Source: a virus (Duplodnaviria > Caudoviricetes). Taken from it: a stretch of 63,015 bases of DNA. Below are positions 32,371-47,533 of the stretch, in pieces. The notes beneath the pieces were generated by a model. That model was given only the letters and a program-made list of their open reading frames with translations, had not been told where the DNA came from and made no database searches. Numbering within the stretch: the stretch's first letter is position 1; the number at the start of each line of letters is the position of its first letter. The stretch lies in the IMG/VR virus record IMGVR_UViG_3300027983_000014, positions 1 to 63,015 of that record. One strand, written 5' to 3'. Both the position numbers and the translations under genes were made by a program.

Positions 32371-34703
32371 TACAACTGGTTCCAAACATTCTGCGCACGC
32401 GGCCTTAGGATCAGGCCAGCGACTGAATCGCCGGTAGCAGCCACCGTCGGGAGGCTTGGAAGCTCATCATCTTGTAGATAAAAGTCGCTATTGAAAACAT
32501 AATCACCGCCAGTTAGACCAGTTGGGTCAGATGTAATCAGGGGGCGCTCACCGGCACTTGAAAAGGTGACCACAAACGGGGCGGTAGGAGTCCCGTACCC
32601 CGTGACAGAGGTCACCGGGAACGATGCGGCAGTCATAGCATTAAGGACTGGGGTGACGCCATCGTCGAAGTTGATAGCGCCTGTTTCGTTCCCCTCATGA
32701 GACAGTGTAAATGTGCCGCCCGTTGGGCTTCCGACAATGTAAAATTGTTGTACGGCTGTTGCGGTGGCGTTGCCCCCTACCCGATGGTCAACCAAAACAT
32801 TCAAAAGCGGATTGCCATAGATATCACATTCGACCAAAGAGTCTCGACTCGTAGTCAAATCGCGAGACCAGCGAACGTTATCTACCCCGGAGACATTGTG
32901 AACAACTTGCAGAAGGTCAGACAGTTGGATAACTGACCCAAAATATTGGCCAGACAGATAAGAGTTCACTGAGTCTGATATCGATTGGCTGATGTCACTA
33001 ATGCCGACTCCGGTGGAAAACATAACGGTGACATCTAATTTGAAGAACCTAGTCTTAGCGCGGTGCGCAAGCACATCTGCCGTGACCTGCTTCTGCCCTT
33101 CCAGCGCCACCTGAAGATCTATGACATTACGGTCATACCGATAATTATCGATGGAGACCGCAGAATCCGTCGTACCGGCAATGGTGGTGCCAGAGTACGG
33201 GCCTTCGCTGTAATCTGCTTCGACAAGTCCACCTACCCCGGTGGCCCATTCGATTCCGTTGCGGGCACGGACCGTGTTCCCGATCTCGGTCACATCCTCT
33301 ACCGCCCAATAGTGGATGTCTTTGGTATATGTGGCATCAGATGTGGTGATCGTGTCCGGCAAATCTGTCGTGGGCTGCCAGAAAAGTGGCGTAAAAATGT
33401 TTCCGACGACAGGCCGACGGTTGGGCTGTCCCACCCTGCGGAAGTTTTCAACGCTAAGAAGTGCGCTTTCATTGCTCACAAAAATGTTCTGGGAGCCTTC
33501 GGGCCTTGGGATAACGGCGCTTGCTGTGACTTCGTTGCTTCCGTTGATAAACACATCTACACAATTGAGGACCTGTCGGTCCCAGTCATTGCGCGAAGCA
33601 GTAGACATATAGCTATGTTCAAATAGCGCGATGTCCTGCGGGCGGACAGCTTGGACCGTTGTGTCTGACCCCGAGAAAACATTGGTAAATGTCAGGTTGG
33701 GTTGATAAAGCGTAGACGCATCGAGGGCACTTGGTCCAGTCTCTGCTATGCGCCCCCTGTAAGCGTCGCCTCGATCTTTGGATGCGTCAGTAGCATTAAG
33801 TGAAAAGTCGACCCCAGTGCGATAGAAAGTTGCCCCGGCCCCGCTCTCGCCATTTGACACAAAGTAAGGAATGGTGTCGTAAACATGCTTCGAGTAGGGA
33901 ACCATAGACAAGGCCGTTGTGTAATCTCCAGCGGAGCCGTTTCCGATAATAGAGCTATCGGGATCTGCGGTTGCGTCGTCTACATCTGGCACCTGAATGT
34001 ATTCGCGGTAGCGGCTGATCGGGCCGACCACATTTGCCTTGGTCGTATTTTGCGTAGATACAGCAAGAGCCAGATACTGGTCTTCGGTCCCCGCCAGATT
34101 GCGAAAGACGGTATTTTTAAAGCGGATCTTATACTCATCGTCCGACTCTCGCTCGACCCCACCTTCGGTCGGGACATCGTTGGTTACTCCGACGATGCCA
34201 AGAATCGGCGTAGTCCCAAACTGGCTAATCGATCCGGCAGAGACATTGCCTAGGGCACCGGCCACACCGCTACGGACGGGGACGGTGACCTTAAGGGACC
34301 CAGCAGGCAAAGTAACGGGTTCTGAGGTCAAGAAAATGAGAGATGTGACTCCCGGGCCTCCGTCTACCGAGACGCTGGGAGCGATAACCTGCGTGTTGCG
34401 AGGGATCGGGACATCGTAAACGGAAGCGGTTGTGCGCCTGAAGGTGACATAACCGGTAGCGCCTCGCGCCTGCTGACGCCCGAAGCCAAACATGCCTAAG
34501 AATTTGTCGACATCGGTCCCGAACTTGGCGTCCAAGTCAAAGGCCCCGGTCAATATGTTCATGTCGACTTGGTTCTCGGCCAAGGCCTGTGCAACCGTGT
34601 CGATGATCTTGCGCTCTGGCGTGCCAACTTCTCCCGACAAGTTGGGGTCAAGCAGCCGGAGCTGCTGGAGCATTTGTAGAGCTAGATCTCTTTGTGTAGC
34701 CAT
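32370..34703 (-). CDS. Baseplate J-like wedge protein
   Basis: ARGATGYVTF, G.LGNVSAGSI, GGVERESDDEY..R, VHNVSGVDNV. Confidence 0.88.
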   Translation of the reverse strand: MATQRDLALQMLQQLRLLDPNLSGEVGTPERKIIDTVAQALAENQVDMNILTGAFDLDAKFGTDVDKFLGMFGFGRQQARGATGYVTFRRTTASVYDVPIPRNTQVIAPSVSVDGGPGVTSLIFLTSEPVTLPAGSLKVTVPVRSGVAGALGNVSAGSISQFGTTPILGIVGVTNDVPTEGGVERESDDEYKIRFKNTVFRNLAGTEDQYLALAVSTQNTTKANVVGPISRYREYIQVPDVDDATADPDSSIIGNGSAGDYTTALSMVPYSKHVYDTIPYFVSNGESGAGATFYRTGVDFSLNATDASKDRGDAYRGRIAETGPSALDASTLYQPNLTFTNVFSGSDTTVQAVRPQDIALFEHSYMSTASRNDWDRQVLNCVDVFINGSNEVTASAVIPRPEGSQNIFVSNESALLSVENFRRVGQPNRRPVVGNIFTPLFWQPTTDLPDTITTSDATYTKDIHYWAVEDVTEIGNTVRARNGIEWATGVGGLVEADYSEGPYSGTTIAGTTDSAVSIDNYRYDRNVIDLQVALEGQKQVTADVLAHRAKTRFFKLDVTVMFSTGVGISDISQSISDSVNSYLSGQYFGSVIQLSDLLQVVHNVSGVDNVRWSRDLTTSRDSLVECDIYGNPLLNVLVDHRVGGNATATAVQQFYIVGSPTGGTFTLSHEGNETGAINFDDGVTPVLNAMTAASFPVTSVTGYGTPTAPFVVTFSSAGERPLITSDPTGLTGGDYVFNSDFYLQDDELPSLPTVAATGDSVAGLILRPRAQNVWNQL

Positions 34704-35170
34704 CAGACTGACGCCTGCACGGGAATCGAAATTTGGATAGGGTCATTACGCCCGGTAGTGATCTCTATCGTGACGGTGACCGTGTCTTCCTTGGGATTGA
34801 TAATGATGCCGTTGATTTCGTACAAGATCTCGTCCTTAGTCAAAGTGGCGTTTTTGAACGCAAACCTATCGGATTTGGCTCTGGTGAATTGAGTGGATCT
34901 GTAATCTTGAAGGATGCGGCTAATTTCAGCACGGATTTTAAGCAAGGCGGAGTCGTCTTGTCTAAGACCAATCATGCTTGGCCGCTCCATGCCGTTTTCC
35001 ATTCCGCCATCGATCAAAGACCCGTACCGGATGTGCAAATTATCAGTGCCCATAGGCTCTAGTACCCAGTGGGCCAGATCTTGTGCGACTTTCTGATGAC
35101 CAGTTGCGATGCCCAATTGGGCACCAGTGGTCGTAAAATCGCCGTTACGTATTTGCAGGCTCCAACTCAT
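34703..35170 (-). CDS. Baseplate wedge / sheath initiator (gp25-like)
   Basis: GHQKVAQDL..W.LEP.G....H..YGS; immediately upstream of J. Confidence 0.75.
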   Translation of the reverse strand: MSWSLQIRNGDFTTTGAQLGIATGHQKVAQDLAHWVLEPMGTDNLHIRYGSLIDGGMENGMERPSMIGLRQDDSALLKIRAEISRILQDYRSTQFTRAKSDRFAFKNATLTKDEILYEINGIIINPKEDTVTVTIEITTGRNDPIQISIPVQASV

Positions 35171-35654
35171 CCTGACTATTACCGGTCGGTTTCGAGTAGA
35201 TCGCTAGTGGCACGCCCCCAGCCATTATCGGGCGATCACAAGTTTTGAAGCCATGGCGCTCAAACATAGGGGCACTTGTAGGGGTCCCACCGATCCTTCC
35301 CTCCCTGACTCCGATTGTATGCCAAACGCCAAGCGCTCTGACAACGGAGGTAAAAATCCCCTGACCTTGGTGCTCTTTTTCGATGTAAAGCCCTTGGAAT
35401 TGCACCACAGAAGTGTCAGCTTCGTCGATGATGGCCCATCCGTGCCCCACCCTCTCTAAGTCTAGGATCCACTCAAACTGGACCTCTACCCTGTTACGCA
35501 GACCGTTGCCATCCCCGGGATTGTGCATCTCGGATTTAGACTGCACTTTACACAAAAACTCATCACAAGAAAAGGCTTTGGCCAATGCATATTCTGCTCC
35601 GGGATAGTCTAATAGTATATCAAGGTCGGCCATTCGATCACGCAACGCCTTCAA
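35145..35654 (-). CDS. GNAT-like acetyltransferase
   Basis: LYIEKEHQGQGIF motif A; SAPMFERHGF; AAGGAG RBS before a TTG start. Confidence 0.65.
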   Translation of the reverse strand: MKALRDRMADLDILLDYPGAEYALAKAFSCDEFLCKVQSKSEMHNPGDGNGLRNRVEVQFEWILDLERVGHGWAIIDEADTSVVQFQGLYIEKEHQGQGIFTSVVRALGVWHTIGVREGRIGGTPTSAPMFERHGFKTCDRPIMAGGVPLAIYSKPTGNSQDELEPANT

Positions 35655-35702: not shown

Positions 35703-35972
35703 TTATCGCCATAAACTTCTCAGAAGAACTAATCGAGATGCTTTCCAGAGATAGTATATATTGTCGCCTGTCTGCTGCTGCGCAATGATTGCCCCGTTAT
35801 TAGAAGCCCGGTGAAGGTGCGAACCAGCACCAGCAGTAGTGCCAGTGTGAGTGTGAGGGACAGACTGACCACCAGATTGATTGCCGCTGGCGCCAACACT
35901 ATGGGCGTGTGACAAAAGCGTCTCCAACCCGTCAGCGCCCTTAACGTTAGGGTTAGGTAATTGAAGAGTCAC
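35703..35972 (-). pseudogene. Short tail-fibre-tip-like ORF, possibly a remnant
   Basis: HAHS..G.QS..HTHTGTT..AGSHLH fibre-tip motifs in only 89 aa. Confidence 0.4.
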
Positions 35973-36877
35973 TACGCGACACCAGTAACTATAAGATTAC
36001 GAGTTATCCAATTGTTAAGGCCCCCACCGCACTTATAGGCCAGTGTAAACTTATTAGTTCCTGCTGTTAGTCCAGTAATAATATATGAGCGCCCCAACCC
36101 TACGTAAGTTGACGCCGGAACGCTAACAAGCACCCCGTTTGCGTCGGTGGCGCCCACGGCGTTTAACTGAACAGAAAGACGAGATGGGTTTGCGGTACCA
36201 TTAACCACGGTCGCAGTCATGTCAATCCTTGCTGTCGTACCTGTTACAAGCGAAACACTAACCGCCGTCGAGTCACTACTAAGCGTTGTGACATACGAGG
36301 CCGAGGACGAATTGGCAGAAGTGTTAGAGAACGCGCCCAACGAAGTCACACAAACCCAAACGGTCCCATTATAGATCGTCTGGATGCCCGTAGGAACGGC
36401 GTTCGTGGCTCCCGTTGCTGCCGGTACGGTCGGGGCTGTCAAATAAACAATCATTCCCTCGGTTGGAGAACCAATGGCTGAGTCACGCGCAGCCTCGTTT
36501 GTAAAAACTGACGTAGCAGTGATAAGGGTCTTGTCGGGTCCAACAACCAAATCGCCTTCAATGGATAGGCTCCCTGCAACCAAGGTGTTGCCCGTAATCT
36601 TGGTGTCTCCGGGATTAAGCGTTGAGACATCGCCAAGACCATCCTCAGGGATTTCGATTCGGCTATCTAGAATCCAGTAACCGTCATCTCGGCGGATTGT
36701 CCAAACCTCTCCTTCTGCTGGCCAACGGAACACAGCTCCGACTTCCGTAGCTCGGATCTGAACCATCGCGCCGTCTTTCAGTGTCCCCTCGATACGACGG
36801 GTGGCGGGATCGACAGTGATGATGCGTGTCGCCAATTTGCGACCATATCCGCCCTGTAGGTATCTGCTGACTGGCAT
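35972..36877 (-). CDS. Putative baseplate spike (OB-fold N-terminus) with beta-rich C-terminal domain
   Basis: IITVDP...WPAEGEVW; G.L.I.GDL.V repeat; FTNEAARDSAI..P.EGM; lies between hub and gp25-like genes. Confidence 0.55.
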   Translation of the reverse strand: MPVSRYLQGGYGRKLATRIITVDPATRRIEGTLKDGAMVQIRATEVGAVFRWPAEGEVWTIRRDDGYWILDSRIEIPEDGLGDVSTLNPGDTKITGNTLVAGSLSIEGDLVVGPDKTLITATSVFTNEAARDSAIGSPTEGMIVYLTAPTVPAATGATNAVPTGIQTIYNGTVWVCVTSLGAFSNTSANSSSASYVTTLSSDSTAVSVSLVTGTTARIDMTATVVNGTANPSRLSVQLNAVGATDANGVLVSVPASTYVGLGRSYIITGLTAGTNKFTLAYKCGGGLNNWITRNLIVTGVA

Positions 36878-36911: not shown

Positions 36912-38309
36912 TCAATCCGCTTGCGTTGAGAGCACCCCGGCCCTTACCATCCCGGCACTAGCGTTTTGGCGTGTTCCCATCTTGGCATCGGCTGGAGCGA
37001 CAAATTTGACCTGAGTCTCAAAGCCAGTCTCGTAATCGAAGGTGTGAGTGACCTCGTCAACATACATTTGCAAGTCATGCTGAGGGAAGCGCACAATGCC
37101 GCCGGGATAAATCTCAGGCATAAAGGTGAGCGAAAAGTCTGCGTTAAACTGCTGGCTCCACATCAAAGAAAACTTCTGGTATGCCAAGAAGGTCTCATAG
37201 TAAGGGGAACGGACCATCGGGGCCTCTTCGAAATGCGGACGAGCGCCGTACTTGCGTAAAAACGCGATGGCTTTATGTTTCTCAGCTAGCGTAGGGCTGT
37301 CCAGAGAGACAGGAGGCTCGTCTGGTTTATCGCCATCTTCGCCGATCTGAACGGCATTCTCGTCTTTCGGATTCATAAAGCCCGCTGCAAATGCGTCAAA
37401 AACTGTAACGATCCCGTTAGTCTGAACGCGATCAAACATGTTGACGCCATCATAAAGACCAGCGATGTCACCAACCACATAAACATGAGTGGCTAAAGCA
37501 TCATCTGTTAAGTCGACCTGACCGCTCAGTATTTCGATGTCTTCGATATCCCAGTAGGGAGTTCTATGATTTTGTCCCCCGAAGTAGTCTGGGTAAAAGG
37601 CAAAAAAGTCGCCATTCGGCAAAGACTGGATGTTCCGCAAGCAAGCCTGAGCAAGCTGTTGCACAAATGGGAACAGGGGCTGATCATTCATAAGCGACTT
37701 CTTGCCGCGAAGAGCCAGACTTTCTACGTTATTAAAAAGTCCGGGAAGATCAATATAAGTTACAAAGGCAGTGGATTTAGAAAGTTTTTCGACGGTCCGA
37801 AGGTCTACTCCTCCTTCCGGGGTTCCCGGGGTAGCCGATTCCTCGTCCGACCCGGTCCGAGGCGAAAACCCATTTGTGCTACGAGCCTCTCGCCAACCAA
37901 CAGGAATGAGCTTGTTGCCGCTACCGCCAGACTCAGCGAACTTCCTGCCACCGTCCATCTCGAAAGTCATAAACGCGTGTGAGTCACTCGGATTACCGGG
38001 GATTTCGTTCACCCAAACCGTGAACTCCTTACCTTCCCCAGCCTTACCCCACACATTCAAGCCGGTAGTCGTCTGAGGCGATGTGAGCAAGCCACCAGCG
38101 TTCAACACAGACGAAACGAACCCGGAGCAATCGTACCCGTTCGGATCATTGAAGCTACCGTGGCCGCCACCCCACAAGTACAACTGCTGTCTCTTATGGA
38201 TTTCGTCAACACGAGCAATCATCCGCTCAACAAGCGCGCTTGACTGATTGGCTGGCTGCCCGCGAGGACCAGTAGTGGAACCTTCATGGTTGCGATCAAT
38301 CGCTGGCAT
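36912..38309 (-). CDS. Baseplate hub C-half paralogue 3 with N-terminal NlpC/P60 peptidase
   Basis: YLWGGGH...YDCSGFVS...H; shared C-region ESLALRG..SL.NDQPL...FMPEIYPGG. Confidence 0.8.
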   Translation of the reverse strand: MPAIDRNHEGSTTGPRGQPANQSSALVERMIARVDEIHKRQQLYLWGGGHGSFNDPNGYDCSGFVSSVLNAGGLLTSPQTTTGLNVWGKAGEGKEFTVWVNEIPGNPSDSHAFMTFEMDGGRKFAESGGSGNKLIPVGWREARSTNGFSPRTGSDEESATPGTPEGGVDLRTVEKLSKSTAFVTYIDLPGLFNNVESLALRGKKSLMNDQPLFPFVQQLAQACLRNIQSLPNGDFFAFYPDYFGGQNHRTPYWDIEDIEILSGQVDLTDDALATHVYVVGDIAGLYDGVNMFDRVQTNGIVTVFDAFAAGFMNPKDENAVQIGEDGDKPDEPPVSLDSPTLAEKHKAIAFLRKYGARPHFEEAPMVRSPYYETFLAYQKFSLMWSQQFNADFSLTFMPEIYPGGIVRFPQHDLQMYVDEVTHTFDYETGFETQVKFVAPADAKMGTRQNASAGMVRAGVLSTQAD

Positions 38310-39862
38310 TACTCTTCGCTTCCTTGCAATCGCATCGACCCCGCCCTGATCATCCCTTCGTGAGCCTTCAGGCGGCCCACACGGTTCCCGTCGCCACTGT
38401 TGATGGCTGCCGGGGCGCTTAGCTGAGCTTTAGTCATGAACCCCTGCTCCATGTCTGCGATATGTTCGACTGAATCGATATAGCATTGGATGCCATGAGA
38501 CGGAAAAGATACTATGCCGCCGGGATACAGCTCGGGCATGTAGGTAAACGTGAAGCCTGTGACAAACTGTCGTGACCACATCAGCATGAACGTTTGGTAG
38601 GCAAGAAAGACTTCGAAGTAGGGGGAGCGGACCATTGGGGCTTCTTCAAAGTATGGACGGGCGCCGTACTTGCGCAAAAACGCCAGCGTTTCGTCTACGG
38701 CAGCTTTAGCCTGCGCTGACGGCGGGTTACCATCTTCTGTTTCTATGCTTTCATCGTTGCCAGTATCGTCTTTTAGGGCCACCTGCCCTGCCGGACTGAA
38801 ATTGTCTGATATGAAGTTTGACTGGAAGGCCTCAAACACTGAAATAACCCCAGCAGTTTGAATCTTGTCAATCAGATTCACTCCATCGAAGTTGGCGATG
38901 TCACCAACTACATATACATGGGTCGCCAAACTGTCGTCAGTCAATTGCATATTGGCGTCAATAATTTCGATGTCTTCAATTTCCCAGTATGGCGTTCTAT
39001 GATTAAGGCCGCCAAAGTAGTCCGGATAAAAGGCAAAGAACCCCCCGTTTGGCAAAGATTGAAAGCTTCTAAGAGAGGCCTTGCACAACTGCTGGACAAA
39101 CGGAAGGAGCGGTTGATCGTTCATAAGGGATTTTTCTCCCCTAAGGGCTAGCGATTCCGCCATTTCCATAATGCCGGGAAGATCAATGAAAGTTGCAAAT
39201 GCAGCGGCTTTAGCAGTCCCGATGATTTGTTCAAGAGAGGCCGTGTCCACATCGGCATCAGTAGAGCTTGGGGCCGTGTCACCAAGTTGGACGACCTCTC
39301 CGTTTTGGGCGCCTTTGACCCAGCTTGTTGGGTCAGTGTTTCCGTTTCCGCCCGGACCATACCGAGCGCTCCCCGGCTTGGAAATGAACATGTGGATATG
39401 CTGGCTTCCGCCAAGGCTTCCCGTTCTGCCAAGCGGCGTCCCGGCCGGGACCTTTTGTCCCTTCTGAACGCGCACAGAGGACGGAAGCATGTGGCCGTAA
39501 CCAAGATATGAGCGGGCGGGCAAGCCCGTCTCTTCGGGCTTAGTTGGAGTGATACTAACCATCGCTTTACCCGTTCTTGATCCTGACCCCGTGTACCAGC
39601 TCTTGTCCACTGTCGCGATTTCACAATCAAACGCCGCAACTAGAACCGATCCGACATCACACACAACATCGACCCCACGATGGCCGCCCGAGTAGTTAGA
39701 GCGTGCGGCTCCATATTCGCATCCGCTACAGTTGCCGACGGCCTTCGCCCCTACGCTTGGTATAGGCCTGACTACGGCAGAAGGGCTGTCTGGCTGCCCG
39801 CGAGGACCGTCTGGCTGCGCACGAGGATAACGAGGAGCCGCTGGTCTAGTAGGTCCGGGCAT
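38309..39862 (-). CDS. Baseplate hub C-half paralogue 2 with N-terminal divergent M23 peptidase
   Basis: HRGVD, YGHM, V.KGQKV..G..LG.TG...HIH; shared C-region. Confidence 0.8.
   Translation of the reverse strand: MPGPTRPAAPRYPRAQPDGPRGQPDSPSAVVRPIPSVGAKAVGNCSGCEYGAARSNYSGGHRGVDVVCDVGSVLVAAFDCEIATVDKSWYTGSGSRTGKAMVSITPTKPEETGLPARSYLGYGHMLPSSVRVQKGQKVPAGTPLGRTGSLGGSQHIHMFISKPGSARYGPGGNGNTDPTSWVKGAQNGEVVQLGDTAPSSTDADVDTASLEQIIGTAKAAAFATFIDLPGIMEMAESLALRGEKSLMNDQPLLPFVQQLCKASLRSFQSLPNGGFFAFYPDYFGGLNHRTPYWEIEDIEIIDANMQLTDDSLATHVYVVGDIANFDGVNLIDKIQTAGVISVFEAFQSNFISDNFSPAGQVALKDDTGNDESIETEDGNPPSAQAKAAVDETLAFLRKYGARPYFEEAPMVRSPYFEVFLAYQTFMLMWSRQFVTGFTFTYMPELYPGGIVSFPSHGIQCYIDSVEHIADMEQGFMTKAQLSAPAAINSGDGNRVGRLKAHEGMIRAGSMRLQGSEE
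38874..38938. repeat. 65-bp exact direct repeat (second copy 40517-40581) inside hub C-half genes
   Basis: AGATTCACTCCATCGAAG...CCAAACTGTCGTC is identical at both loci. Confidence 0.9.
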
Positions 39863-39865
39863 TAC
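39807..39865. repeat. 59-bp exact direct repeat (second copy 41363-41421) covering the start of two hub C-half genes
   Basis: CCGTCTGGCTGCGCACGAGG...GGTCCGGGCATTAC is identical at both loci. Confidence 0.9.
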
Positions 39866-41418
39866 TCTCCTTTTACACTCGGAGGAGCTGGGGACGGACC
39901 ATTGCCCACCGTAGGAGCCTTGTTCATTGCCATGCTCCCGGCTCTAATCATTCCCTCATGGGCAGAAAGGTTGCCAGTTCTAACGGTTTGCCCATTCTGA
40001 TTTCGCGTGATGGCTGCCGGGGCACTTAACTGCGCGGTTGTGTGGAAGCCGCTTCCAAAGTCGGCGACATGGCTGACTGAATCGATATAGCACTGTATCC
40101 CGTGCCGAGGAAACGAAACGATGCCCCCCGGATACAGCTCGGGCATATACGTGAACTCAAACGTAGTCACAAACTGTCGTGACCACATCAGCATGAACTT
40201 TTGATAAGCAAGAAAAGCCTCGAAGTAGGGGGAGCGGATCATTGGAGCTTCTTCGAAATAGGGACGGGCGCCATACTTCTTCAAAAAGTTGATGGCCTGC
40301 TCATTATTAATGTTAATTTGAGCGCTAGAATCATCTTTGTACTTATTGTTATCCTGATTGTCGCTCATTGGCTTTCCTGCAAGGGGTCCGTGATGGTACG
40401 GATCTGCTTCAATTTCAGTTTGGTCGCTTGTCGCAGAGGTCGGGTTGCCAGACAGGAAGTCTGCTTGAAATGCAGTAAAAACTGTGGCCACTCCGCCACT
40501 TTGGATTTTGTCGAATAGATTCACTCCATCGAAGTTGGCGATGTCACCAACTACATATACATGGGTCGCCAAACTGTCGTCTGAAAGATCAATCTCTCCG
40601 TTCAATATTTCGATGTCTTCAATCTCCCAGTATGGGGTCCTATGATTGAGGCCGCCAAAGTAATCGGGGAAGAAAGCAAAGAAGCCTCCGTCTGGCAGCG
40701 ACTGAAAATTACGTAGCGATGCTGCACATAGCTGCTGCACGAAGGGCATGAGCGGCTGATCGTTAAGAAGAGACCTTTCGCCTCGCAAAGCCATCGACTC
40801 TGCCATATCCATAATGCCGGGGACGGCGATGAATGTGGCAAAGGCGCTAGCCTTGGCGACCCCGGCAATTTGGGCGAGGGTGGCTTGAGTGGCGTCGTCG
40901 CCCGGAACCGCCGCGCCCCCGTCTTGTGTGTCCGAGCCATCAAGCCACGGCTCAGGGTCAACCAACGTGCCATTACGCTTTAGACCAAAGTGCAGGTGCG
41001 GCCCGGTGGAGTTGCCCGTGCTCCCAACCGCACCGATGGTGTCGCCCTTCTTAACGCCCTTTCTAACCTGAACAGACATCTTACTAAGGTGCAGATATTG
41101 TGTGACAGTCCCGCCGCCATGATCAATTTCAATCATCTTGCCCGCGTCGCCTGCTATCGCGGCAAAAGTAACACGTCCGTCTTTGACGGCAAAAACGGGC
41201 GTCCCTTCTGGAGCTTGGATGTCGATGCCTTTATGATCGCTAGACGCTCCGGCAGTAGGCGAAGTCCTAGGTCCGAAGTCAGAACCGTCGCCTGTGCCCA
41301 TTTTGTATTTGCCGGGGACAGGCCACATGGGCTTGTTGCTCTCAGTCGGCGGAGTTCGAGGGCCGTCTGGCTGCGCACGAGGATAACGAGGAGCCGCTGG
41401 TCTAGTAGGTCCGGGCAT
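39862..41418 (-). CDS. Baseplate hub C-half paralogue 1 with N-terminal canonical M23 peptidase
   Basis: HKGID, YLHL, GSTGNSTGPHLHF; shared C-region. Confidence 0.85.
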   Translation of the reverse strand: MPGPTRPAAPRYPRAQPDGPRTPPTESNKPMWPVPGKYKMGTGDGSDFGPRTSPTAGASSDHKGIDIQAPEGTPVFAVKDGRVTFAAIAGDAGKMIEIDHGGGTVTQYLHLSKMSVQVRKGVKKGDTIGAVGSTGNSTGPHLHFGLKRNGTLVDPEPWLDGSDTQDGGAAVPGDDATQATLAQIAGVAKASAFATFIAVPGIMDMAESMALRGERSLLNDQPLMPFVQQLCAASLRNFQSLPDGGFFAFFPDYFGGLNHRTPYWEIEDIEILNGEIDLSDDSLATHVYVVGDIANFDGVNLFDKIQSGGVATVFTAFQADFLSGNPTSATSDQTEIEADPYHHGPLAGKPMSDNQDNNKYKDDSSAQININNEQAINFLKKYGARPYFEEAPMIRSPYFEAFLAYQKFMLMWSRQFVTTFEFTYMPELYPGGIVSFPRHGIQCYIDSVSHVADFGSGFHTTAQLSAPAAITRNQNGQTVRTGNLSAHEGMIRAGSMAMNKAPTVGNGPSPAPPSVKGE

Positions 41419-42560
41419 TACCGATACTTGCCCCAGCCGCCGCCGTCTCCGGCATTACGTGAAGACTCCCATGGCTGCATCCCGCCCGACTTGAAGAGGG
41501 AGAGAGCCGCCTTGGCGTTGTTGAAAGGGTTGCGCATGTCGCCATGTAAGCGGACTAGATCCGGATGCACCTTAACATAAATTTGCCACAAGCCCTCGCA
41601 GCCGATGCTGTTAACCAGACCGGGCTTGAGTGATGACTCAGCGAAGGCCACGCGACGAAATAGCTTTGCGTCCTTCTCGCTAAAGCCAACATACTTCGCT
41701 ATAGAAAACACCTGACTGGGGTCCAAAACGTCAGACCCATTTTCAGGGTACACTCGATCTAGGCCTTGGAGTTCAGCATCTTGGACATTGTTGTCCCCGC
41801 TATCACCACCACCATTGTCAAGTGCGCTGCCGTAAGACCCGCCACCGAGCGCCCCCTCCAAGAAATAATTGAGGTCGGCGCGGGCCGACGCCTCGGCCGT
41901 TAATGCCATTTCCTTGTAGATGTTTTCTACGGTGTCGACGATGCCGTCAGGCAAACTTTCAATGAAAATTGTTTCATCAGACCAGCCGCCGATTTCAATA
42001 AGTGTGTCAAATAGCAATCCGCCTATCGAACCATCGGTTTGCTTTACATACGGGGTTCCGTCGGGCCTGAACTTTTTCGCAGGGGCTGTTTCTTCTTGGG
42101 GATTTGTGATTCCGCCAAGCTGCGCGTTGACCTGCCACCCGTGAGACTGAAGAAACTCCCAAACAAAAGGAAGCCCCGGATCGAAATAGGTGTAGAGAAG
42201 GCGCTTAATAGTGCAACTGGCTTTGATCTTGCATGTCCCGGGGAATAGCTGGATGTACGGGGTCGTATCACAAAACCCAGTGAACACTTGCATGGGCCGA
42301 TCTTTGATCCTAGTCATTGTGATCACGATAGGGTCCATGGGATGGAAAATTGGTCCCCGTGTCGACGTCTTTGAAACCGAGTCGTAAGTCTTGCTGTCCG
42401 TCCAGATAAACTGAGGGTTGCGGAACTCTACTTCGGCCGTGCTGACTGCGTCGATTTGGCGATTAACCGAACAGCTTGTCACGTAGGGGCTTAGATCGTA
42501 AATGCCAGAATCTGTTTTGACAAATACATCGACTCTTGGAGTGTAAACTAGGCGTTTCAA
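41418..42560 (-). CDS. Baseplate hub N-half paralogue 2 with C-terminal SLT/lysozyme-like transglycosylase
   Basis: MKRLVYTPRVD N-region; VAFAESS...GLWQI...NPFNNAKAA...G.QPW. Confidence 0.8.
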   Translation of the reverse strand: MKRLVYTPRVDVFVKTDSGIYDLSPYVTSCSVNRQIDAVSTAEVEFRNPQFIWTDSKTYDSVSKTSTRGPIFHPMDPIVITMTRIKDRPMQVFTGFCDTTPYIQLFPGTCKIKASCTIKRLLYTYFDPGLPFVWEFLQSHGWQVNAQLGGITNPQEETAPAKKFRPDGTPYVKQTDGSIGGLLFDTLIEIGGWSDETIFIESLPDGIVDTVENIYKEMALTAEASARADLNYFLEGALGGGSYGSALDNGGGDSGDNNVQDAELQGLDRVYPENGSDVLDPSQVFSIAKYVGFSEKDAKLFRRVAFAESSLKPGLVNSIGCEGLWQIYVKVHPDLVRLHGDMRNPFNNAKAALSLFKSGGMQPWESSRNAGDGGGWGKYR

Positions 42561-43705
42561 TCTGCTCTCCTAATCTCTACGTCCCCTTTGCCCGAGAACT
42601 TAAGGGCCTTGGTGATTCCCGGTTCAAGGTCGATTTTATAATGTGCGTCACCCGCTTGCCCCGAGCCGTTGTCTACCTTAGTGATGAACCAAGTCTTGCT
42701 GGGTTTTTTGGGGTCTCGAATCTCTAGCTTAAAGCGGCATTTCAAACCGGTCGGGGTCCCGTCGGTCACTTCGCCCTTGATATCAAACAAATCCGCTAAA
42801 AACCCTCCGTTACGGGCCAATTTCAATTTTTTATTGGTGCCAGCAACGCCCAGTTCAGCATAACTGAATCCATTGTTCTTGGCTTCGTTCCCGCAGGAAA
42901 CATCTCCTCCGCTGTAATCATCCGTAGTGGCCCCAACCTTAACCCATTCGCCCTTGCCGACCCCAGACGTAACCGATCCGCCATCCTCATTCACAGCGTA
43001 GCCGCTTAGTGTGGCGGTCCCAATCATTTCTTTTAGCAGGAGTTTGATGTCTTTGAATGCTTCTTCGCTGGTCGTTTCGCGATCCGTGACCATGGCGGCC
43101 ACTAAGCTGATGATGCCCTCTGGTAATCCTTCTATGAAAATGGATTCAGGATCCCAGCCGCCGATTTCATTCAACACATCAAACAGTAGTTTGCCAATGC
43201 TTGCGTCATTTAGGCGAAGGGATTCATCTTCTACGCTTTTTTCTCCGCCGAGCTGCGTCAAGCCGGTTTGAGTATTAGTTTGCCAACCCTTTTCCTCAAG
43301 CCAAGTGTGGACAAAAGGAAGTCCCGGATCGAAGTAAGTATAAAGAAGTCGCTTCAATGTGCAAGAAGCGGTTAGTTCTACAACGCCCGGGTAAGCGGAG
43401 ATGTAGGGGGTCGTGTCTAGGAACCCAGTGAACACCTGCATAGGACGATCTTTGATGCGGGTAAGCGTAACGGTGATCTTATCCATAGGATGGAACACGG
43501 GAGCCAAAACCTTAGACCCATCGGAGTCTGTGCGCTCGCCATCGGTCCACATAAACTGCGGATTGCGCAGCGTTAAGTTAACCGTACTGACGGCGTTCTG
43601 GCGGCGAGTGACGCTACCCTTAGTGATGTATGGGCTGACATCATACAAACCCGTGTCAGTCTGAATAAAGGCGTCGACCCTAGGAGTGTAGACGAGTCTT
43701 TTCAT
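42557..43705 (-). CDS. Baseplate hub N-half paralogue 1 with C-terminal RlpA-like double-psi beta-barrel
   Basis: MKRLVYTPRVD N-region; VGAT...AEL...LKC..KLEI...KVDNG...IDL...KAL...G.VEI. Confidence 0.72.
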   Translation of the reverse strand: MKRLVYTPRVDAFIQTDTGLYDVSPYITKGSVTRRQNAVSTVNLTLRNPQFMWTDGERTDSDGSKVLAPVFHPMDKITVTLTRIKDRPMQVFTGFLDTTPYISAYPGVVELTASCTLKRLLYTYFDPGLPFVHTWLEEKGWQTNTQTGLTQLGGEKSVEDESLRLNDASIGKLLFDVLNEIGGWDPESIFIEGLPEGIISLVAAMVTDRETTSEEAFKDIKLLLKEMIGTATLSGYAVNEDGGSVTSGVGKGEWVKVGATTDDYSGGDVSCGNEAKNNGFSYAELGVAGTNKKLKLARNGGFLADLFDIKGEVTDGTPTGLKCRFKLEIRDPKKPSKTWFITKVDNGSGQAGDAHYKIDLEPGITKALKFSGKGDVEIRRAD

Positions 43706-43711
43706 AATCCC

Positions 43712-44518
43712 TTAGAGATTCGGGGCAGTTGGCGTCCCCCAAAGTCCAGTGGACGGAGTTTCGCGAAGCGGACCCCGTCCTTCCGTCGGCTTGGGTGGTT
43801 TGGGTGGTTTGGTTGGTTTTGTTATCTCCTGAAACTCGTTTCTTGGACGCGCCGCAAAAAGGGTCATAAAATCCGTCATCTCTTTTGGCTTCCAGCTTCC
43901 GTCTTCTAAGCGACCGGGGCCTGTGACCATCTCGGCGACTAGAAACTCAAACTCAAATGTGGGAGCGGGATCAAAACGCTTAGCGCCAGCCTGAATGTTT
44001 TTGATGTACCCCTTGGCGACCCACTGGTGAGGGCGCCCTTTGCGTGCAGTATTTGAGCCGGGGTTGGCTTCTCCCCTCAGGTCTTCATCGCTTTTTCGTC
44101 CGTTGATGCTTAGCTCGATGAGCGGATCGAAGTCTGCGTCATCTTGCGAATAATATCGCGACGATAATGCGTTGTACTGGGATTCACGCACAAAAATGGC
44201 AAACAGGTTTCTTCTGTAGCTGTCAGCGTGTCTGCCCCTGATCGTGATGCTAGGCTGAGACAGGTTGTGAGGGAAGAATTGACGAACGCTACGGCTCTGC
44301 CCAGTCGATCCGTTGATGTTGATGGTAATGTCCATGTCCTCGATCCAGAAATAGATCTCACGATTAAATTGGTCCGTCAGCTTTGCGGTGTAATTGTTGG
44401 TCGACGGATCGGTTTCCGAAATGTATCTGACCCCGTAACCTTTGCGTATGGGTAGTTCGGCCCCCGGCACATGTTTCTGGCCGTGTTTGTCGCCAGACGG
44501 GGTCCAATAATTACTCAT
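43712..44518 (-). CDS. Tail tube initiator/baseplate protein
   Basis: Downstream of the tape measure gene; IEDM.IT motif shared with its neighbour; start placed at MSNYW. Confidence 0.5.
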   Translation of the reverse strand: MSNYWTPSGDKHGQKHVPGAELPIRKGYGVRYISETDPSTNNYTAKLTDQFNREIYFWIEDMDITININGSTGQSRSVRQFFPHNLSQPSITIRGRHADSYRRNLFAIFVRESQYNALSSRYYSQDDADFDPLIELSINGRKSDEDLRGEANPGSNTARKGRPHQWVAKGYIKNIQAGAKRFDPAPTFEFEFLVAEMVTGPGRLEDGSWKPKEMTDFMTLFAARPRNEFQEITKPTKPPKPPKPTEGRGPLRETPSTGLWGTPTAPNL

Positions 44519-45335
44519 CTTGCCCGCCTCCGCTAGGCGGATTAGGAGTCGGAGCAGGAGCGCTAGGCGGATCTGTTCCTTTGCCGCCGCCACTTAGGAA
44601 CGCCGGTTTTGAATAATCGGCATTCAGACTCCGGAAGTCAGCAGCCAAGTAGGCTGGGATCAATTGTTTATAGGTCTCGGACAGATCTTTATAATGTCCT
44701 CGGACCTTGCCTTCCTCGTACTGCTTTGTGGTCGGACCAGAAAACGGGTCGTCTACCTTGAAATCGAATGCAGTGTCCTTTCCATCTGCAACGGAGCTAG
44801 TATTGAGCGTCGCTTTCCCAAAGAGAGACACCTTTTGGGTGGTCATATAAGTCTTCCCCGACTCCGGTAGGATCGCTTCTCCTAGCTCCTTATAAGCCTG
44901 CTGGCCAATGCCCCAGTCAGGTTCTACTACGGCGGCCTGCATGGTCCATTCAGGGACGACGATGTCGCGCCCATATTTGAAGGAGGGGAGGGACTTAGGG
45001 ATTAAGTGGAAAGTCCAGCCTCGTTCTTCGTAATACATGTGGACGGGAGTAGACTTGTATCCGTCTGCCCCCTGCCCCGTGTTACCTTGGGTGGCGCCCT
45101 CCATGTATTCTACAAACCAAGCAAAAATTTCTTCCATCTCCCGGTAGCTTCCAATACTTCCAGTAATGGTCATGTCTTCAATGAAGACAGACAGGATCTG
45201 AATCACCTCTCCACCATAAGTTGGGTAATTAGCCGTGTTGAGCTGATAAGACCATTCTATAGAGTTTGGTTTTACCTGTACACTAAGCGTGTTGTCTTCT
45301 CCTCTACTGGGATCTCTAAACTGAATTCCAGCCAT
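44511..45335 (-). CDS. Tail tube initiator/baseplate protein
   Basis: VKPNSIEWSY...TYGGEVIQ...DMTITG pattern. Confidence 0.55.
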   Translation of the reverse strand: MAGIQFRDPSRGEDNTLSVQVKPNSIEWSYQLNTANYPTYGGEVIQILSVFIEDMTITGSIGSYREMEEIFAWFVEYMEGATQGNTGQGADGYKSTPVHMYYEERGWTFHLIPKSLPSFKYGRDIVVPEWTMQAAVVEPDWGIGQQAYKELGEAILPESGKTYMTTQKVSLFGKATLNTSSVADGKDTAFDFKVDDPFSGPTTKQYEEGKVRGHYKDLSETYKQLIPAYLAADFRSLNADYSKPAFLSGGGKGTDPPSAPAPTPNPPSGGGQDE

Positions 45336-47533
45336 TATCGACCCCCCCCGGCGAAACGGTATTTGCTTGTAGACCCGGCGCTTGCGGCATCATCATTGGC
45401 CCGCCCGTCGCCTCGGTTGGCGTCGTCCTTGGAAGTCACTAACCGGAAGTGCTTCGCCGCCTCTCCTCTTAGCTCGATATAAGTCTTATTAGGGTCGGCA
45501 GCATCGGGCAGCAGTCCGTCAGGCAACCCCTTATCCGTAACAAAGCGTTCCATTTCTTGCTGCTGCTCAGATATGATCTGCTCAAGCCGATCCCACTCTT
45601 TGTTGTGGACCCCGCCCTTCCTGATTTGGGCAATGTCGGCACTCCTATAATTGGCGATTTCATCTATCTCTTTCTTGTATTTCTGGCCGACTATGAAGTC
45701 AGGCTCGCCCTTCTCGCCCGGGATTCGCGCCTGACGGATTTCGTTAAATGCCTCGCCCTTCGTAAAGATGTTGGGATCGTTGTCAGTGGTCCTCCCATCT
45801 AAGAGAGCTTCGACAGGAGTTTTGCCCCCCCAGCGCACCTCCCGGCTTTCAGCATTGAATTGATCGGCGTACCCCCCGCTGCCAAGCATCGCTTGCATCA
45901 ATTGCGAGTAGCCCTTTTTGACCTGCCTAGTCTGCGGGTCCATAAGCTGTCTCAATACGTCCGGAGACATATCCGTGTGTTGAGCCATGAGTCCGATCTG
46001 CTGCTCCCATCCCCCAGAGATAGTTTTAAGACCCATATCTCCAAGCTTCCCCGGAGCTTTATTCACCAAAGTTTCGAAGCCGCTTGTGGCAGTTCCAAGT
46101 TCGTTGACAGACTGGATCATGGCGGATATCTTCTGGCCGCCGCTCATGCTTGCCTGAGCGTTAGGCATAAGTCCAGTTGATCTAAACGCTGCGGACTGGT
46201 AGAACGGGTTCTGCATGTATTGCTCCATAACGGCAGGGGGCAAGCCTCCCACTCCGGTAAAATACTCCGTGTCCTTGACGGCTTGCATTGCCGTTCCGCC
46301 CATTTTTTCATAGGTCTCGGCAAGCTGCAAGGCATCTTGAACCATCTGCTCTTGAGTTACATGAGCGACATCGGCAGCCTTTGGATAACCCTCGGTCAAA
46401 AGCGTGAAGAATTCATTCATGTCGGCGTTGCCGTATCGAAGCGCCTTATCCATAAGCAAAGGGGTATTCGGATTTTGAGCCATCCGCTTGTTGGACTGCA
46501 TCATGCCGTCGTAGCCTTCTCGGTAACGATCTACCAAGTTGTCAGAAGGGGACCCGCCACCCTGTCCTCCAGTATAACCTAGCGCGCTAAGCTGCTGATC
46601 AATGAAACCCACTTGCTCACTGTTGATGCCGCCCTTGGAAGCCGACCTTTTAACCTGTTGAAATTTTTCTTCTACGCCCTTGGTAAAGGTTTGGTTGAGG
46701 AAGGGAACGCTGAGTGGCCCGAACTGTCCTCCTGTCCCGTAAGCATTGGCTGCTAGGCCACGGTCGAGGGTCGGGGCCATGGCAGTGTGATAGTTGCTGG
46801 CGTACTGTTGGGCAATTTTGTAATTTGGGATATATTCTGCCGCTTTATAAAGGCCATAGGCTGCTTGAGCAGATCTTAGACCGGCGCCCTCGGTGTCAGG
46901 GTTGTTACGATGACGTCTTTCTGCCGTCCTTTGCGCGATTCCGCCCATTGTTCTCAAAAGAGAGTCTGCTTGAAACTCTCCGAATTGAGGGATCAGCAGC
47001 GGCTCGGGAGCCTCAGGAAGCTGTGCGAACGGCCTTGAGGCACCAGAACTTGCTCCTCCTGTCCCGCCTCCGCCTCCGCCTCCGCCTCCGCCCCTGCCCG
47101 GATTTGAATACCCTCCCTGAGACACATTCGGCAAGTCGATAGGCGTCATATTACCCCACAAGGCCTCGCGCCCACTCGCTGTTAGACTTTGGCGCAGGCT
47201 GTTGAAGAAGCCAGAGGAGTGGCCTTCGCTCGGCCCCATCCCTGCGCTAGAGATCGGCTGACCGTCAGGGCCTAGTAGACCGCCGCCGCTCCTAGAGGCC
47301 TGTGCAGAATGGCCCGACTTGTAGAAGTCTGCATTGATCCCCTCGGCAAGATTCTTCTGCGCCCTTGTGGCTTCGGCTATATTGACGGAAAGCGCATCAA
47401 TACTTGCCTTGAGCTGGTCGATCTCTTGACGAAACGACCCCATGTTCTCGGTTAGCTGCTGAAGGTTTACGGACCCCAAAAGGTCTACAATCCTTACGTC
47501 AAGTGGATTTTTGTCGTCGCCGAGGGCCATCAA
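45335..47533 (-). CDS. Tape measure protein
   Basis: Follows tube and chaperones; rich in A/G/Q/M, helical, 732 aa. Confidence 0.7.
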   Translation of the reverse strand: MMALGDDKNPLDVRIVDLLGSVNLQQLTENMGSFRQEIDQLKASIDALSVNIAEATRAQKNLAEGINADFYKSGHSAQASRSGGGLLGPDGQPISSAGMGPSEGHSSGFFNSLRQSLTASGREALWGNMTPIDLPNVSQGGYSNPGRGGGGGGGGGGTGGASSGASRPFAQLPEAPEPLLIPQFGEFQADSLLRTMGGIAQRTAERRHRNNPDTEGAGLRSAQAAYGLYKAAEYIPNYKIAQQYASNYHTAMAPTLDRGLAANAYGTGGQFGPLSVPFLNQTFTKGVEEKFQQVKRSASKGGINSEQVGFIDQQLSALGYTGGQGGGSPSDNLVDRYREGYDGMMQSNKRMAQNPNTPLLMDKALRYGNADMNEFFTLLTEGYPKAADVAHVTQEQMVQDALQLAETYEKMGGTAMQAVKDTEYFTGVGGLPPAVMEQYMQNPFYQSAAFRSTGLMPNAQASMSGGQKISAMIQSVNELGTATSGFETLVNKAPGKLGDMGLKTISGGWEQQIGLMAQHTDMSPDVLRQLMDPQTRQVKKGYSQLMQAMLGSGGYADQFNAESREVRWGGKTPVEALLDGRTTDNDPNIFTKGEAFNEIRQARIPGEKGEPDFIVGQKYKKEIDEIANYRSADIAQIRKGGVHNKEWDRLEQIISEQQQEMERFVTDKGLPDGLLPDAADPNKTYIELRGEAAKHFRLVTSKDDANRGDGRANDDAASAGSTSKYRFAGGGR

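Follow-up and report, generated by a model that had tools for sequence, protein, structure and literature searches.

A putatively split and multiplied baseplate hub carrying different wall-hydrolase domains in an uncultured contractile-tailed phage

Five coupled genes built from two kinds of module

The stretch of DNA analyzed here, hereafter the window, is an incomplete linear viral contig from IMG/VR (record IMGVR_UViG_3300027983_000014; Duplodnaviria, Caudoviricetes), which spans 63,015 bp and for which CheckV gives an estimate of 39%. Its contractile-tail module lies on the minus strand and includes, between positions 36912 and 43705, an array of five adjacent genes (A to E), in which one of two kinds of shared module is combined with differing terminal domains. 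In minus-strand order, these genes are as follows:

42557-43705, minus strand: gene A, 382 amino acids (aa); N-half module at residues 1-235 (about 43001-43705), followed by a small C-terminal beta domain of ~147 aa (42560-43000)
41418-42560, minus strand: gene B, 380 aa, TTG start; N-half module at residues 1-245 and SLT_3 domain at residues 287-364 (about 41469-41702)
39862-41418, minus strand: gene C, 518 aa; M23 domain at residues 61-155 (about 40954-41238) and C-half module at residues 179-500
38309-39862, minus strand: gene D, 517 aa; divergent M23-like domain at residues 60-163 (about 39374-39685) and C-half module at residues 208-513
36912-38309, minus strand: gene E, 465 aa; NlpC/P60-like domain, matched at residues 43-78 (about 38076-38183), and C-half module at residues 168-463

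The five minus-strand open reading frames (ORFs) that the original prediction had placed here were borne out by the ORF listing, and the regions it had described as common to A and B on the one hand, and to C, D and E on the other, were recovered both by alignment and by module hidden Markov models (HMMs). Genes A and B both start with MKRLVYTPRVD and are 45% identical overall, their likeness stopping after about residue 235, and C, D and E (C/D 59%, C/E 43% identical) share a near-continuous conserved block in their final ~300 residues and have differing N-termini; the module HMMs scored every copy at E values of 1e-102 to 1e-137. In line with the proposed translational coupling of the five genes, stops and starts overlap at all four junctions (TTGA at A/B; TAATG at B/C, C/D and D/E), and AGGAG-like motifs are found upstream of B and D.

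The enzyme labels that had been attached to the genes fared unevenly, as those of B (SLT-like) and C (M23) were confirmed, that of D lies at the cut-off, and 'RlpA-like DPBB' for A and 'NlpC/P60' for E stood less firmly. In gene B, SLT_3 exceeded the Pfam gathering score (33.8 bits against a cut-off of 27, E 4.6e-8) and SLT reached 20.6 bits against 21.3, while the M23 domain of gene C was clear (114.4 bits against a cut-off of 28.7, E 2.8e-33; M23 matches in the Protein Data Bank (PDB) down to E 1.1e-11). With regard to the same cut-off of 28.7, gene D scored 27.6 bits as a whole protein and 31.0 bits for residues 1-201 alone; H-x-x-x-D and H-x-H, which we take to be M23-type motifs, are visible in its sequence. 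The NlpC/P60 match of gene E remained below the Pfam cut-off (19.2-20.8 bits against 23) and spanned 35 residues only, with Y-x-W-G-G...D-C-S-G-F, presumably a motif of the NlpC/P60 type, visible in the sequence.

For the C-terminal domain of gene A, no match was obtained in Pfam or NCBIfam. Among the 13 proteins sharing this domain, one matched DPBB_1, below the cut-off, and comparison of the domain family with the DPBB_1-positive relative P0026 by hhalign gave a probability of 71% (E 3.7e-5); on these profile comparisons, the domain is possibly a lytic transglycosylase of the DPBB (double-psi beta-barrel) type. The Atlas returned only low-score leads for it (features 0.78, template-modeling (TM) score below 0.4, adaptor barrels of the resistance-nodulation-division (RND) type), and the likeness to RND-adaptor barrels was rejected as family evidence. 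AlphaFold2 (AF2) models of the enzyme domains of A and E were poor, with predicted local distance difference test (pLDDT) values below 50, and gave no usable fold. Sequence searches of the PDB with gene A, the three C halves and the A-domain family returned M23 only, and matched neither the scaffold modules nor the C-terminal domain of A.

The two modules as opposite ends of one hub protein

All five proteins matched phrog_2810, a profile of 952 positions that represents a structural protein in the virions of actinophage myoviruses, with E values of 3.7e-40 (A), 1.3e-33 (B), 1.7e-53 (C), 7.5e-51 (D) and 8e-57 (E). A and B covered positions 47-267 of the profile and C, D and E positions of about 621-921, that is, one end each, and therefore the two modules represent the two ends of one protein family. 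A tblastn search of 50,697 phage records gave 223 with the N module and 224 with the C module, at one place per record; the hosts were Mycobacterium (209), Gordonia (9), Rhodococcus (4) and Mycolicibacterium (1), and one further record, from Eggerthella, had the C module alone. In every top row, the two modules lay within one annotated gene, such as gp119 of Rhodococcus phage E3, an 806-aa 'baseplate protein'.

Structures were predicted by AF2 from alignments of relatives, with a mean pLDDT of about 66 and confident scaffold parts. In the model of E (mean pLDDT 66.6), residues 200-460 mostly reached values of 75-96, and a Foldseek search against the PDB yielded 21 matches at E ≤ 1e-3. All the matches listed at this level were baseplate, tail-tip or spike proteins of phages, tailocins or contractile injection systems, including phages 7-7-1 and Milano, MuSo2, Mu gp44 and the PVC and AlgoCIS spikes; VgrG of a type VI secretion system (T6SS), pyocin R2 and T4 gp27 were next, just above E 1e-3. 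With VIA-align, E 174-465 was placed on Mu gp44 132-367 (Z 9.3, root-mean-square deviation 4.0, 192 aligned), E 181-462 on T4 gp27 156-368 (Z 6.9-7.0), while the matching ranges were 173-440 of E and 111-325 of the hub for R2 pyocin (Z 8.5), and 175-456 of E and 205-619 of the hub for phi812 (Z 8.5); overall, Z values of the C module were up to 9.9. In the model of A, residues 10-120 mostly exceeded a pLDDT of 90, and its barrel (residues 1-120) was placed on the starts of these same chains, namely the phi812 hub (1-124, Z 7.2), HFTV1 (20-116, Z 8.4), Mu gp44 (3-169, Z 6.1) and 3d37 (6-171, Z 7.8).

Taken alone, the N module is, as modeled, a tube-like barrel only; its reading as hub domain I relies on match order, fused homologues and gene position taken together. 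On this combined basis, the models support the N module as the first barrel of a gp27/Mu gp44-type hub and the C module as the rest of the same chain. The proposal that the shared regions are complementary parts of one gp27-like fold is supported by these successive fold matches on the same hub chains.

The related actinobacterial myophages have one gene of 800-1100 aa in place of the array, and the fused proteins indicate where such a gene was cut. The 854-aa protein of locus L080 consists of the N module (2-232), SLT (275-356), M23 (433-519) and the C module (563-851), and the 902-aa P0126 contains SLT at 273-362, a weak M23 at 435-511 and the C module from 586, while P0178 and P0185 carry the C-terminal domain of gene A at about 260-410 and then a weak M23. 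Across the fused relatives, SLT or DPBB-like domains were thus positioned at about 270-410 and M23 at about 430-580. A scan of 48 fused proteins returned 26 M23, 9 SLT, 6 Phage_lysozyme2, 6 SLT_3, 3 SLT_2, 2 3D and 2 NlpC/P60 domains. Since these relatives carry a glycosidase and then a peptidase between the modules, the split falls between the two enzymes, and the ancestral hub, as judged from sequence comparison, reads N - glycosidase - peptidase - C. This order supports the proposal that a hub gene had been cut inside its enzyme insertion and its halves multiplied. The 112 N-half carriers scanned contained 13 SLT_3, 8 SLT, 5 VanY and 4 Phage_lysozyme2 domains, along with one each of M23, SLT_2, DPBB_1, M15_3, 3D, S58 and GDSL, and the 49 C-half carriers contained 17 M23, 2 Amidase_2, 2 NlpC/P60 (E ≤ 0.001, best E 4.3e-7), 2 GDSL and 1 VanY. 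In both sets of domain matches, the split proteins retain the division seen in the fused hubs, with the glycosidase on the N piece and the peptidase on the C piece. A nested insertion, that is, a B-C unit within an A-D unit, was rejected, as the best relatives of the C and D peptidases were not in the fused proteins that share the A or B glycosidases.

Split arrays were also encountered elsewhere. A locus search with the E sequence alone returned no relatives, and alignments were used for the later searches. The N-half alignment retrieved 65 loci from IMG/VR, of which 55, as surveyed with the two module HMMs, contain both modules fused in one ORF of 800-1130 aa, the single-gene form with which the original prediction had invited comparison. 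Three N pieces followed by one C piece were present in 8 of the 65 loci (L014-L021; L015 and L016 look identical), and L024 contains one of each. L029 (7291-12808) contains a split pair (393 + 515 aa) with a fused 935-aa hub gene, bearing M23, directly after it, and is a possible intermediate or else a genome with two hub systems. Among 12 loci on metagenome contigs, six were fused, two were cut by contig ends and one was without module, and the others comprised two N and two C pieces (L079), one of each (L081), and three N and one C (L083, which appears to be the same contig as L020). In the protein collections, 218 clusters of 210-669 aa, the length of N halves only, matched the N module, and the best 150 representatives of the C module included 40 of 400-600 aa and 103 of at least 760 aa, with 20 of the best 25 being short. 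The combination of two N and three C pieces was seen in the window only, among the loci examined, and none of these loci has more than three copies of either piece. The arrangement is thus not the one-off it had seemed, given that split hubs with other copy numbers are common; judged from these searches, split arrays are widespread among uncultured relatives of actinobacterial myophages. At 10001-10741 of L021, a 246-aa N half ends 12 residues after the scaffold module; this 'bare' piece lies next to two that bear enzymes.

In a maximum-likelihood tree of 36 N modules, copies clustered by genome or close lineage (L018 N1-N3, L020 N1-N3, L014 N1-N3), and A and B paired with weaker support (80/76). 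The enzyme domains, in contrast, grouped across genomes: those of L015_N2, L017_N2, L018_N2, L019_N1, L021_N2 and the L029 N half fell together, Amidase_2-bearing N1 genes formed a second such group, the domain of gene A grouped with L015_N3 and that of gene B with L014_N3. The NlpC/P60-like domain of gene E was also found on the L029 N half and inside fused hubs. Concerted evolution of the scaffolds could account for this pattern, as could shuffling of the enzyme cassettes or the two combined; from the tree alone, these are not distinguished from duplications that arose repeatedly and independently. A 65-nucleotide (nt) repeat is present at two junctions of the array:

39801-39865: copy 1, covering the GTAATG junction together with 62 nt from the start of gene D
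41357-41421: copy 2, covering the GTAATG junction together with 62 nt from the start of gene C

The two copies are 98% identical, whereas identity within the array's remaining repeat families (D1-D6) is 66-78%, and the tract looks like the result of recent gene conversion or recombination. In two loci with a fused hub, a 438-aa gene immediately upstream of the hub (L041, 8685-10001; L085, 6795-8111) ends in an NlpC/P60-like module of the E type (35% identity over 120 aa), which indicates that this module also rides on another baseplate protein.

With regard to the surroundings of the array, the minus-strand order in the window is a 732-aa ORF, two small genes, the five-gene array, a 301-aa gene, a gp25/W-like gene and Baseplate_J:

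45335-47533, minus strand: 732-aa ORF, tape measure by position only; the position matches E3 gp116, 'putative tape measure protein'
43712-45335, minus strand: two genes (293 aa and 274 aa) that separate the tape measure from the array, possibly tube initiators (phrog_2777, phrog_2786)
35972-36877, minus strand: 301-aa gene, candidate central spike (a lead only), with an OB-like N-terminus and a C1q/BclA-like knob
34703-35170, minus strand: gp25/W-like baseplate protein (phrog_2669, E 6.5e-22)
32370-34703, minus strand: Baseplate_J-like wedge protein (Baseplate_J, E 6.2e-21; phrog_6, E 2.5e-45)

The gp25/W-like and Baseplate_J genes fix the baseplate context of the array, which sits between the tape-measure position and these wedge genes as in E3, where the order (tape measure protein gp116, gp117, gp117.5, gp118, gp119, gp120, W, J, I) equals that of the window. 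Together with the matches to the two ends of phrog_2810 and the single-gene relatives, this synteny sustains the assignment of the array to the hub slot. Its flanks match PHROGs of unknown function or nothing, and the tube-initiator and spike labels derive from position and weak leads. The 732-aa ORF had no match in the PHROG profile search, and both phrog_2777 and phrog_2786 are of unknown function, the position of the 293-aa and 274-aa genes equaling that of E3 gp117-gp118. As listed, these two ORFs overlap by 83 nt (44511-44593); the 293-aa ORF probably starts at an internal ATG ~25 codons in, which would remove the overlap. The 301-aa gene downstream of the array had no match in Pfam or PHROG, and its structural neighbors in the Atlas were weak (TM 0.22-0.58). 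The N-terminus of its model resembles an OB (oligonucleotide/oligosaccharide-binding) fold (IF-1, Mu gp45/V clusters; TM about 0.2), its residues 91-301 resemble the knob of viral hypothetical proteins and a collagen/BclA_C-bearing cluster (TM 0.41-0.58), and a C1q-bearing cluster was among the nearest by features; the model suggests that the protein may be a spike with a binding knob. A 169-aa ORF inside the baseplate module (35145-35654, minus strand), between the candidate spike and the gp25-like gene, had a weak match to an acetyltransferase PHROG (phrog_1249, E 7.5e-5).

The host is probably a member of the Actinomycetota, because this applies to the hosts of all cultured relatives and to the Solirubrobacter and Streptomyces records described below. 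No tRNA genes were found in the window, and the split loci have a G+C content of 37-54%. A scan of genome contigs with the N-half alignment gave no match, and one with the C-half alignment gave six loci, all fused, in Ca. Solirubrobacter pratensis, three Streptomyces records and two contigs of metagenome-assembled genomes; in these two scans, the split form was found in no named host genome. The Ca. Solirubrobacter pratensis scaffold (L091; 602,736 bp) encodes at 8228-11008 a fused 926-aa hub whose C module is 54% identical to that of E; this locus within a large bacterial scaffold may be a prophage or tailocin, and it provides a host lead in Thermoleophilia. A fused hub is also encoded by plasmid pRLB1-9.1 of Streptomyces sp. 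cg35 (L094; 151,251 bp), which is filed as a plasmid, and two more Streptomyces contigs, of 152-156 kb, encode a fused hub of the phrog_2810-type family; these three are possibly phage genomes or phage-plasmids.

Proposed assembly of the pieces at the tail tip

The fit between an N and a C piece was examined by complex prediction of A 1-235 with E 166-465, for which our own alignments were supplied, so that the following calibration counts hold only roughly. The best of three controls gave 0.00, and the pair reached an ipSAE of 0.76; among 80 solved complexes this mark is attained by 58, and among 110 mismatched pairs by 2. Contacts agreed by at least 77% between runs and partner pLDDT was at least 65. 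The roughly 300 contacts of the predicted interface include paired strands, N 28-34 against C 419-425 and N 188-191 against C 235-237, as a split domain would show in the model. Binding between the two halves, which the original prediction had suggested looking for, is thus predicted for A and E. Residues of the predicted interface were better conserved among paralogs than the others (A=B, 45/62 vs. 81/173; C=D=E, 43/66 vs. 106/234, Fisher p 0.005), which is compatible with interchangeable pairing in the modeled geometry.

On the basis of these results, we consider it probable that the five genes encode a two-piece hub of the gp27/Mu gp44 type, the pieces of which were duplicated and the paralogs of which assemble together in one ring; that the hub was split and amplified is well supported, and a heteromeric, combinatorial tip is plausible. 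In a large, contractile-tailed phage, most likely infecting Actinomycetota, an ancestral single chain would have carried glycan-cleaving and peptidase domains as insertions after its first tube-like barrel region and ahead of the remaining hub. A cut between the two enzymes would have generated an N piece, made up of the first barrel, a subdomain of ~110 aa and the glycosidase as a free C-terminal domain, and a C piece, in which the peptidase stands free at the N-terminus ahead of the other hub domains. A hub protomer would be rebuilt from one piece of each kind by strand pairing, as predicted for A and E, and three protomers would form a ring where the tail tube ends. The pieces have both been duplicated, to two N and three C copies, each retaining the scaffold and bearing a different hydrolase. 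As each first barrel would touch two C pieces in the ring, the copies would have to stay compatible, and the paralogs would most likely mix in the same three-fold ring, bringing up to five kinds of hydrolase to each tip compared with two in the fused ancestor. Incorporation of all five products into the virion, their mixing in one hub and their enzymatic activity are presumed in this scheme. A possible rationale for the split is that loop-inserted enzymes, tethered at both ends, would become terminal domains, for which one in-frame junction suffices for exchange; such terminal cassettes are in keeping with the variety of enzyme families that the split pieces carry.

We also entertain, more tentatively, a bolder version in which three N and three C pieces obligatorily form a hetero-oligomeric hub, with paralogs differing by ring position, a chemically asymmetric tip and a fixed kit of up to five or six hydrolases. 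In this version, copies would be capped at three by the geometry of the ring, as no examined locus exceeds three of either kind. The scaffolds would be kept compatible by gene conversion, as suggested by the clustering of N paralogs by genome and of enzymes across genomes and by the 65-nt tract at the 5' ends of C and D, and cassettes would be swappable even between N and C scaffolds, given the presence of the E-type NlpC/P60-like module on the N half of L029.

Several observations weigh against the reading of the array as a two-piece hub with paralogs assembling together. None of the five proteins or their fused relatives matched the hub families of Pfam or NCBIfam, and the Z values of the N module were middling (6-8.4), with tail-tube proteins scoring equally (Z around 6). 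A and E are the one pair modeled of the six N/C pairs, as a 1:1 complex; solved hubs exist, and halves of a split fold can pass complex prediction by likeness alone; and the interface consists in part of core residues, which would be conserved in any case. Two N and three C genes under coupled translation are not expected to supply the pieces 1:1. Finally, the B/C and C/D junctions were not bridged by short Logan contigs, which break, for example, at 41392; because k-mer contigs end inside the 65-nt repeat, this is a limit of short k-mer contigs and not evidence against the junctions.

Among the rival explanations, one is that each particle or hub uses a single N and a single C paralog, such homotypic rings giving mixed particles as bet-hedging across wall chemotypes. 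The resolved hubs phi92 gp137, phiKZ gp101 and phi812 gp110 are homotrimers of one chain ('heterotrimer', in the accessible parts of those reports, refers to the wedges), the available portion of a study on Serratia describes VgrG1 and VgrG2 as unmixed under native conditions (PMC4924876), and the scaffolds of the array have diverged to 43-59% identity, which could encode self-preference. However, the five genes are translationally coupled, so that their products would be together during assembly, and the better conservation of predicted-interface residues among paralogs likewise argues against self-preference; we regard homotypic rings as unlikely. Still lower, as very unlikely, we rank the explanation that one N/C pair is structural and the other copies are duplicates heading for loss or scaffold-tagged soluble lysins that do not become part of the tail. 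The enzyme domains of D and E, at or below the Pfam cut-offs, and the 246-aa N half of L021, almost without enzyme domain, would suit it, but all five ORFs are intact and have full-length scaffold modules (with the module HMM scores given above), multi-copy arrays persist in several diverged lineages, and catalytic-type motifs, as we take them to be, are visible in B, C, D and E.

It also had to be considered that the array is an assembly artefact in which strain variants of one or two genes were concatenated, an outcome that the original prediction had itself named as fatal to it. The window is a metagenome-assembled, incomplete contig, and the near-identical 65-nt repeat stands at the two junctions where the public k-mer contigs break. 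On the other hand, the protein divergence of the paralogs (41-57%) and their different enzyme families show that they are not strain alleles. Eleven public runs from eight studies contain the stretch or part of it, with no RNA run among those listed, which speaks neither for nor against expression; the phage is abundant in freshwater or estuarine habitats. Six of the runs contain at least half of the sampled words of the stretch; two of these six may be the source, and the contigs of four other runs were mapped. In runs X3, X4 and X5, drawn from two studies that are not the possible source, all 30 bins were covered by contigs with at least 95% likeness (most at least 99%), and the per-contig depth was flat over E, D, C, B, A and the flank (X3, 203-235; X4, 200-242; X5, 84-104), which argues against collapsed strain variants. 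Single contigs bridged the A/B and A/upstream junctions (X3, 41392-44600) and the D/E junction (X3, X4), and the sole alternative resolution of the 65-nt repeat would leave gene C as a circle by itself. With similar arrays also occurring in unrelated contigs, we judge such an artefact to be extremely improbable. In the D/E contigs of X3 and X4, a 24-nt in-frame deletion at 38269 was observed in the N-terminal region of gene E; this variant is probably represented by P0121, a protein of 457 aa that falls short of E by 8 residues and has 95% identity to it across the first 165 residues of E. Loose contig ends at 38270 and 38304 point to a short stretch that also occurs in other sequence.

Comparison with known systems

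The closest homologues of the array are the single-chain hubs of actinobacterial myophages (E3 gp119, Mycobacterium phages of the cluster C type and the Gordonia phages Pupper and Skog), which have homologous modules of about 30-34% identity at the same gene position and wall-hydrolase domains between them. In those phages, the hub is one gene of 800-1130 aa with one copy per genome (223 places in 223 records), whereas the window has two kinds of gene, in two and three copies, with enzymes of their own. A fold in common with both the C module and the N barrel is found in the hubs gp27, P2 gpD and Mu gp44, a fold that combines a pair of tube-like barrels with two lower domains and of which the known examples are single-chain homotrimers; the window modules differ in having no match to the Pfam hub families. 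In T4, gp27 and gp5 form a trimeric hub with three copies of the gp5 lysozyme, that is, one kind of enzyme carried on the spike protein, and gp27 is one chain. The fold of T4 gp27 matches the C module, as described above, whereas the window enzymes sit on the hub pieces rather than on the spike.

A hydrolase on the hub itself, at the tip of the tube, is described for Staphylococcus phage 812 (phi812), the hub gp110 of which comprises domains I-IV, a clamp and a CHAP 'cleaver' in the accessible part of the report (PMC13433997). Similarly, gp147 of Bacillus phage 0305phi8-36, a 'hyperplastic' gp27 homologue, combines a conserved hub core with exchangeable peptidoglycan-cleaving domains; the available portion of that study presents one large gene, with no split or paralog array described (PMC2147016), in contrast to the split and multiplied genes of the window. 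A keyword search of the open-access literature found no description of a split or multiplied phage hub, an absence that is not proof.

Baseplate hubs are usually treated as single-chain homotrimers. The arrangement proposed here would suggest how phages of thick-walled hosts bring mixed glycosidases and peptidases to one point of the wall, and it predicts a breaking of symmetry at the tail tip that cryo-electron microscopy with imposed three-fold (C3) symmetry would average away. It would also offer a natural design for exchangeable enzyme display at the tail tip, with terminal cassettes on two small scaffold modules, and the hundreds of scaffold-tagged hydrolases in metagenomes would constitute a ready catalogue of virion-associated lysins.

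The nearest functional parallel, by analogy, is the multi-VgrG spike of the T6SS, in which several gp27-type trimeric tip paralogs with different enzymatic or effector loads can serve one machine. According to the accessible part of the literature, VgrG paralogs can form heterotrimeric spikes with different loads in Vibrio cholerae and Aeromonas dhakensis (PMC8668125), and some VgrG paralogs do not mix (PMC4924876). VgrG is a fusion of gp27 and gp5 and part of a bacterial weapon, whereas the hub of the window would be a split gp27-type protein and part of a virion, their kinship being limited to the shared fold. If the proposed reading is true, a naturally split and multiplied hub with several hydrolases would be the phage counterpart of these T6SS multi-VgrG spikes.

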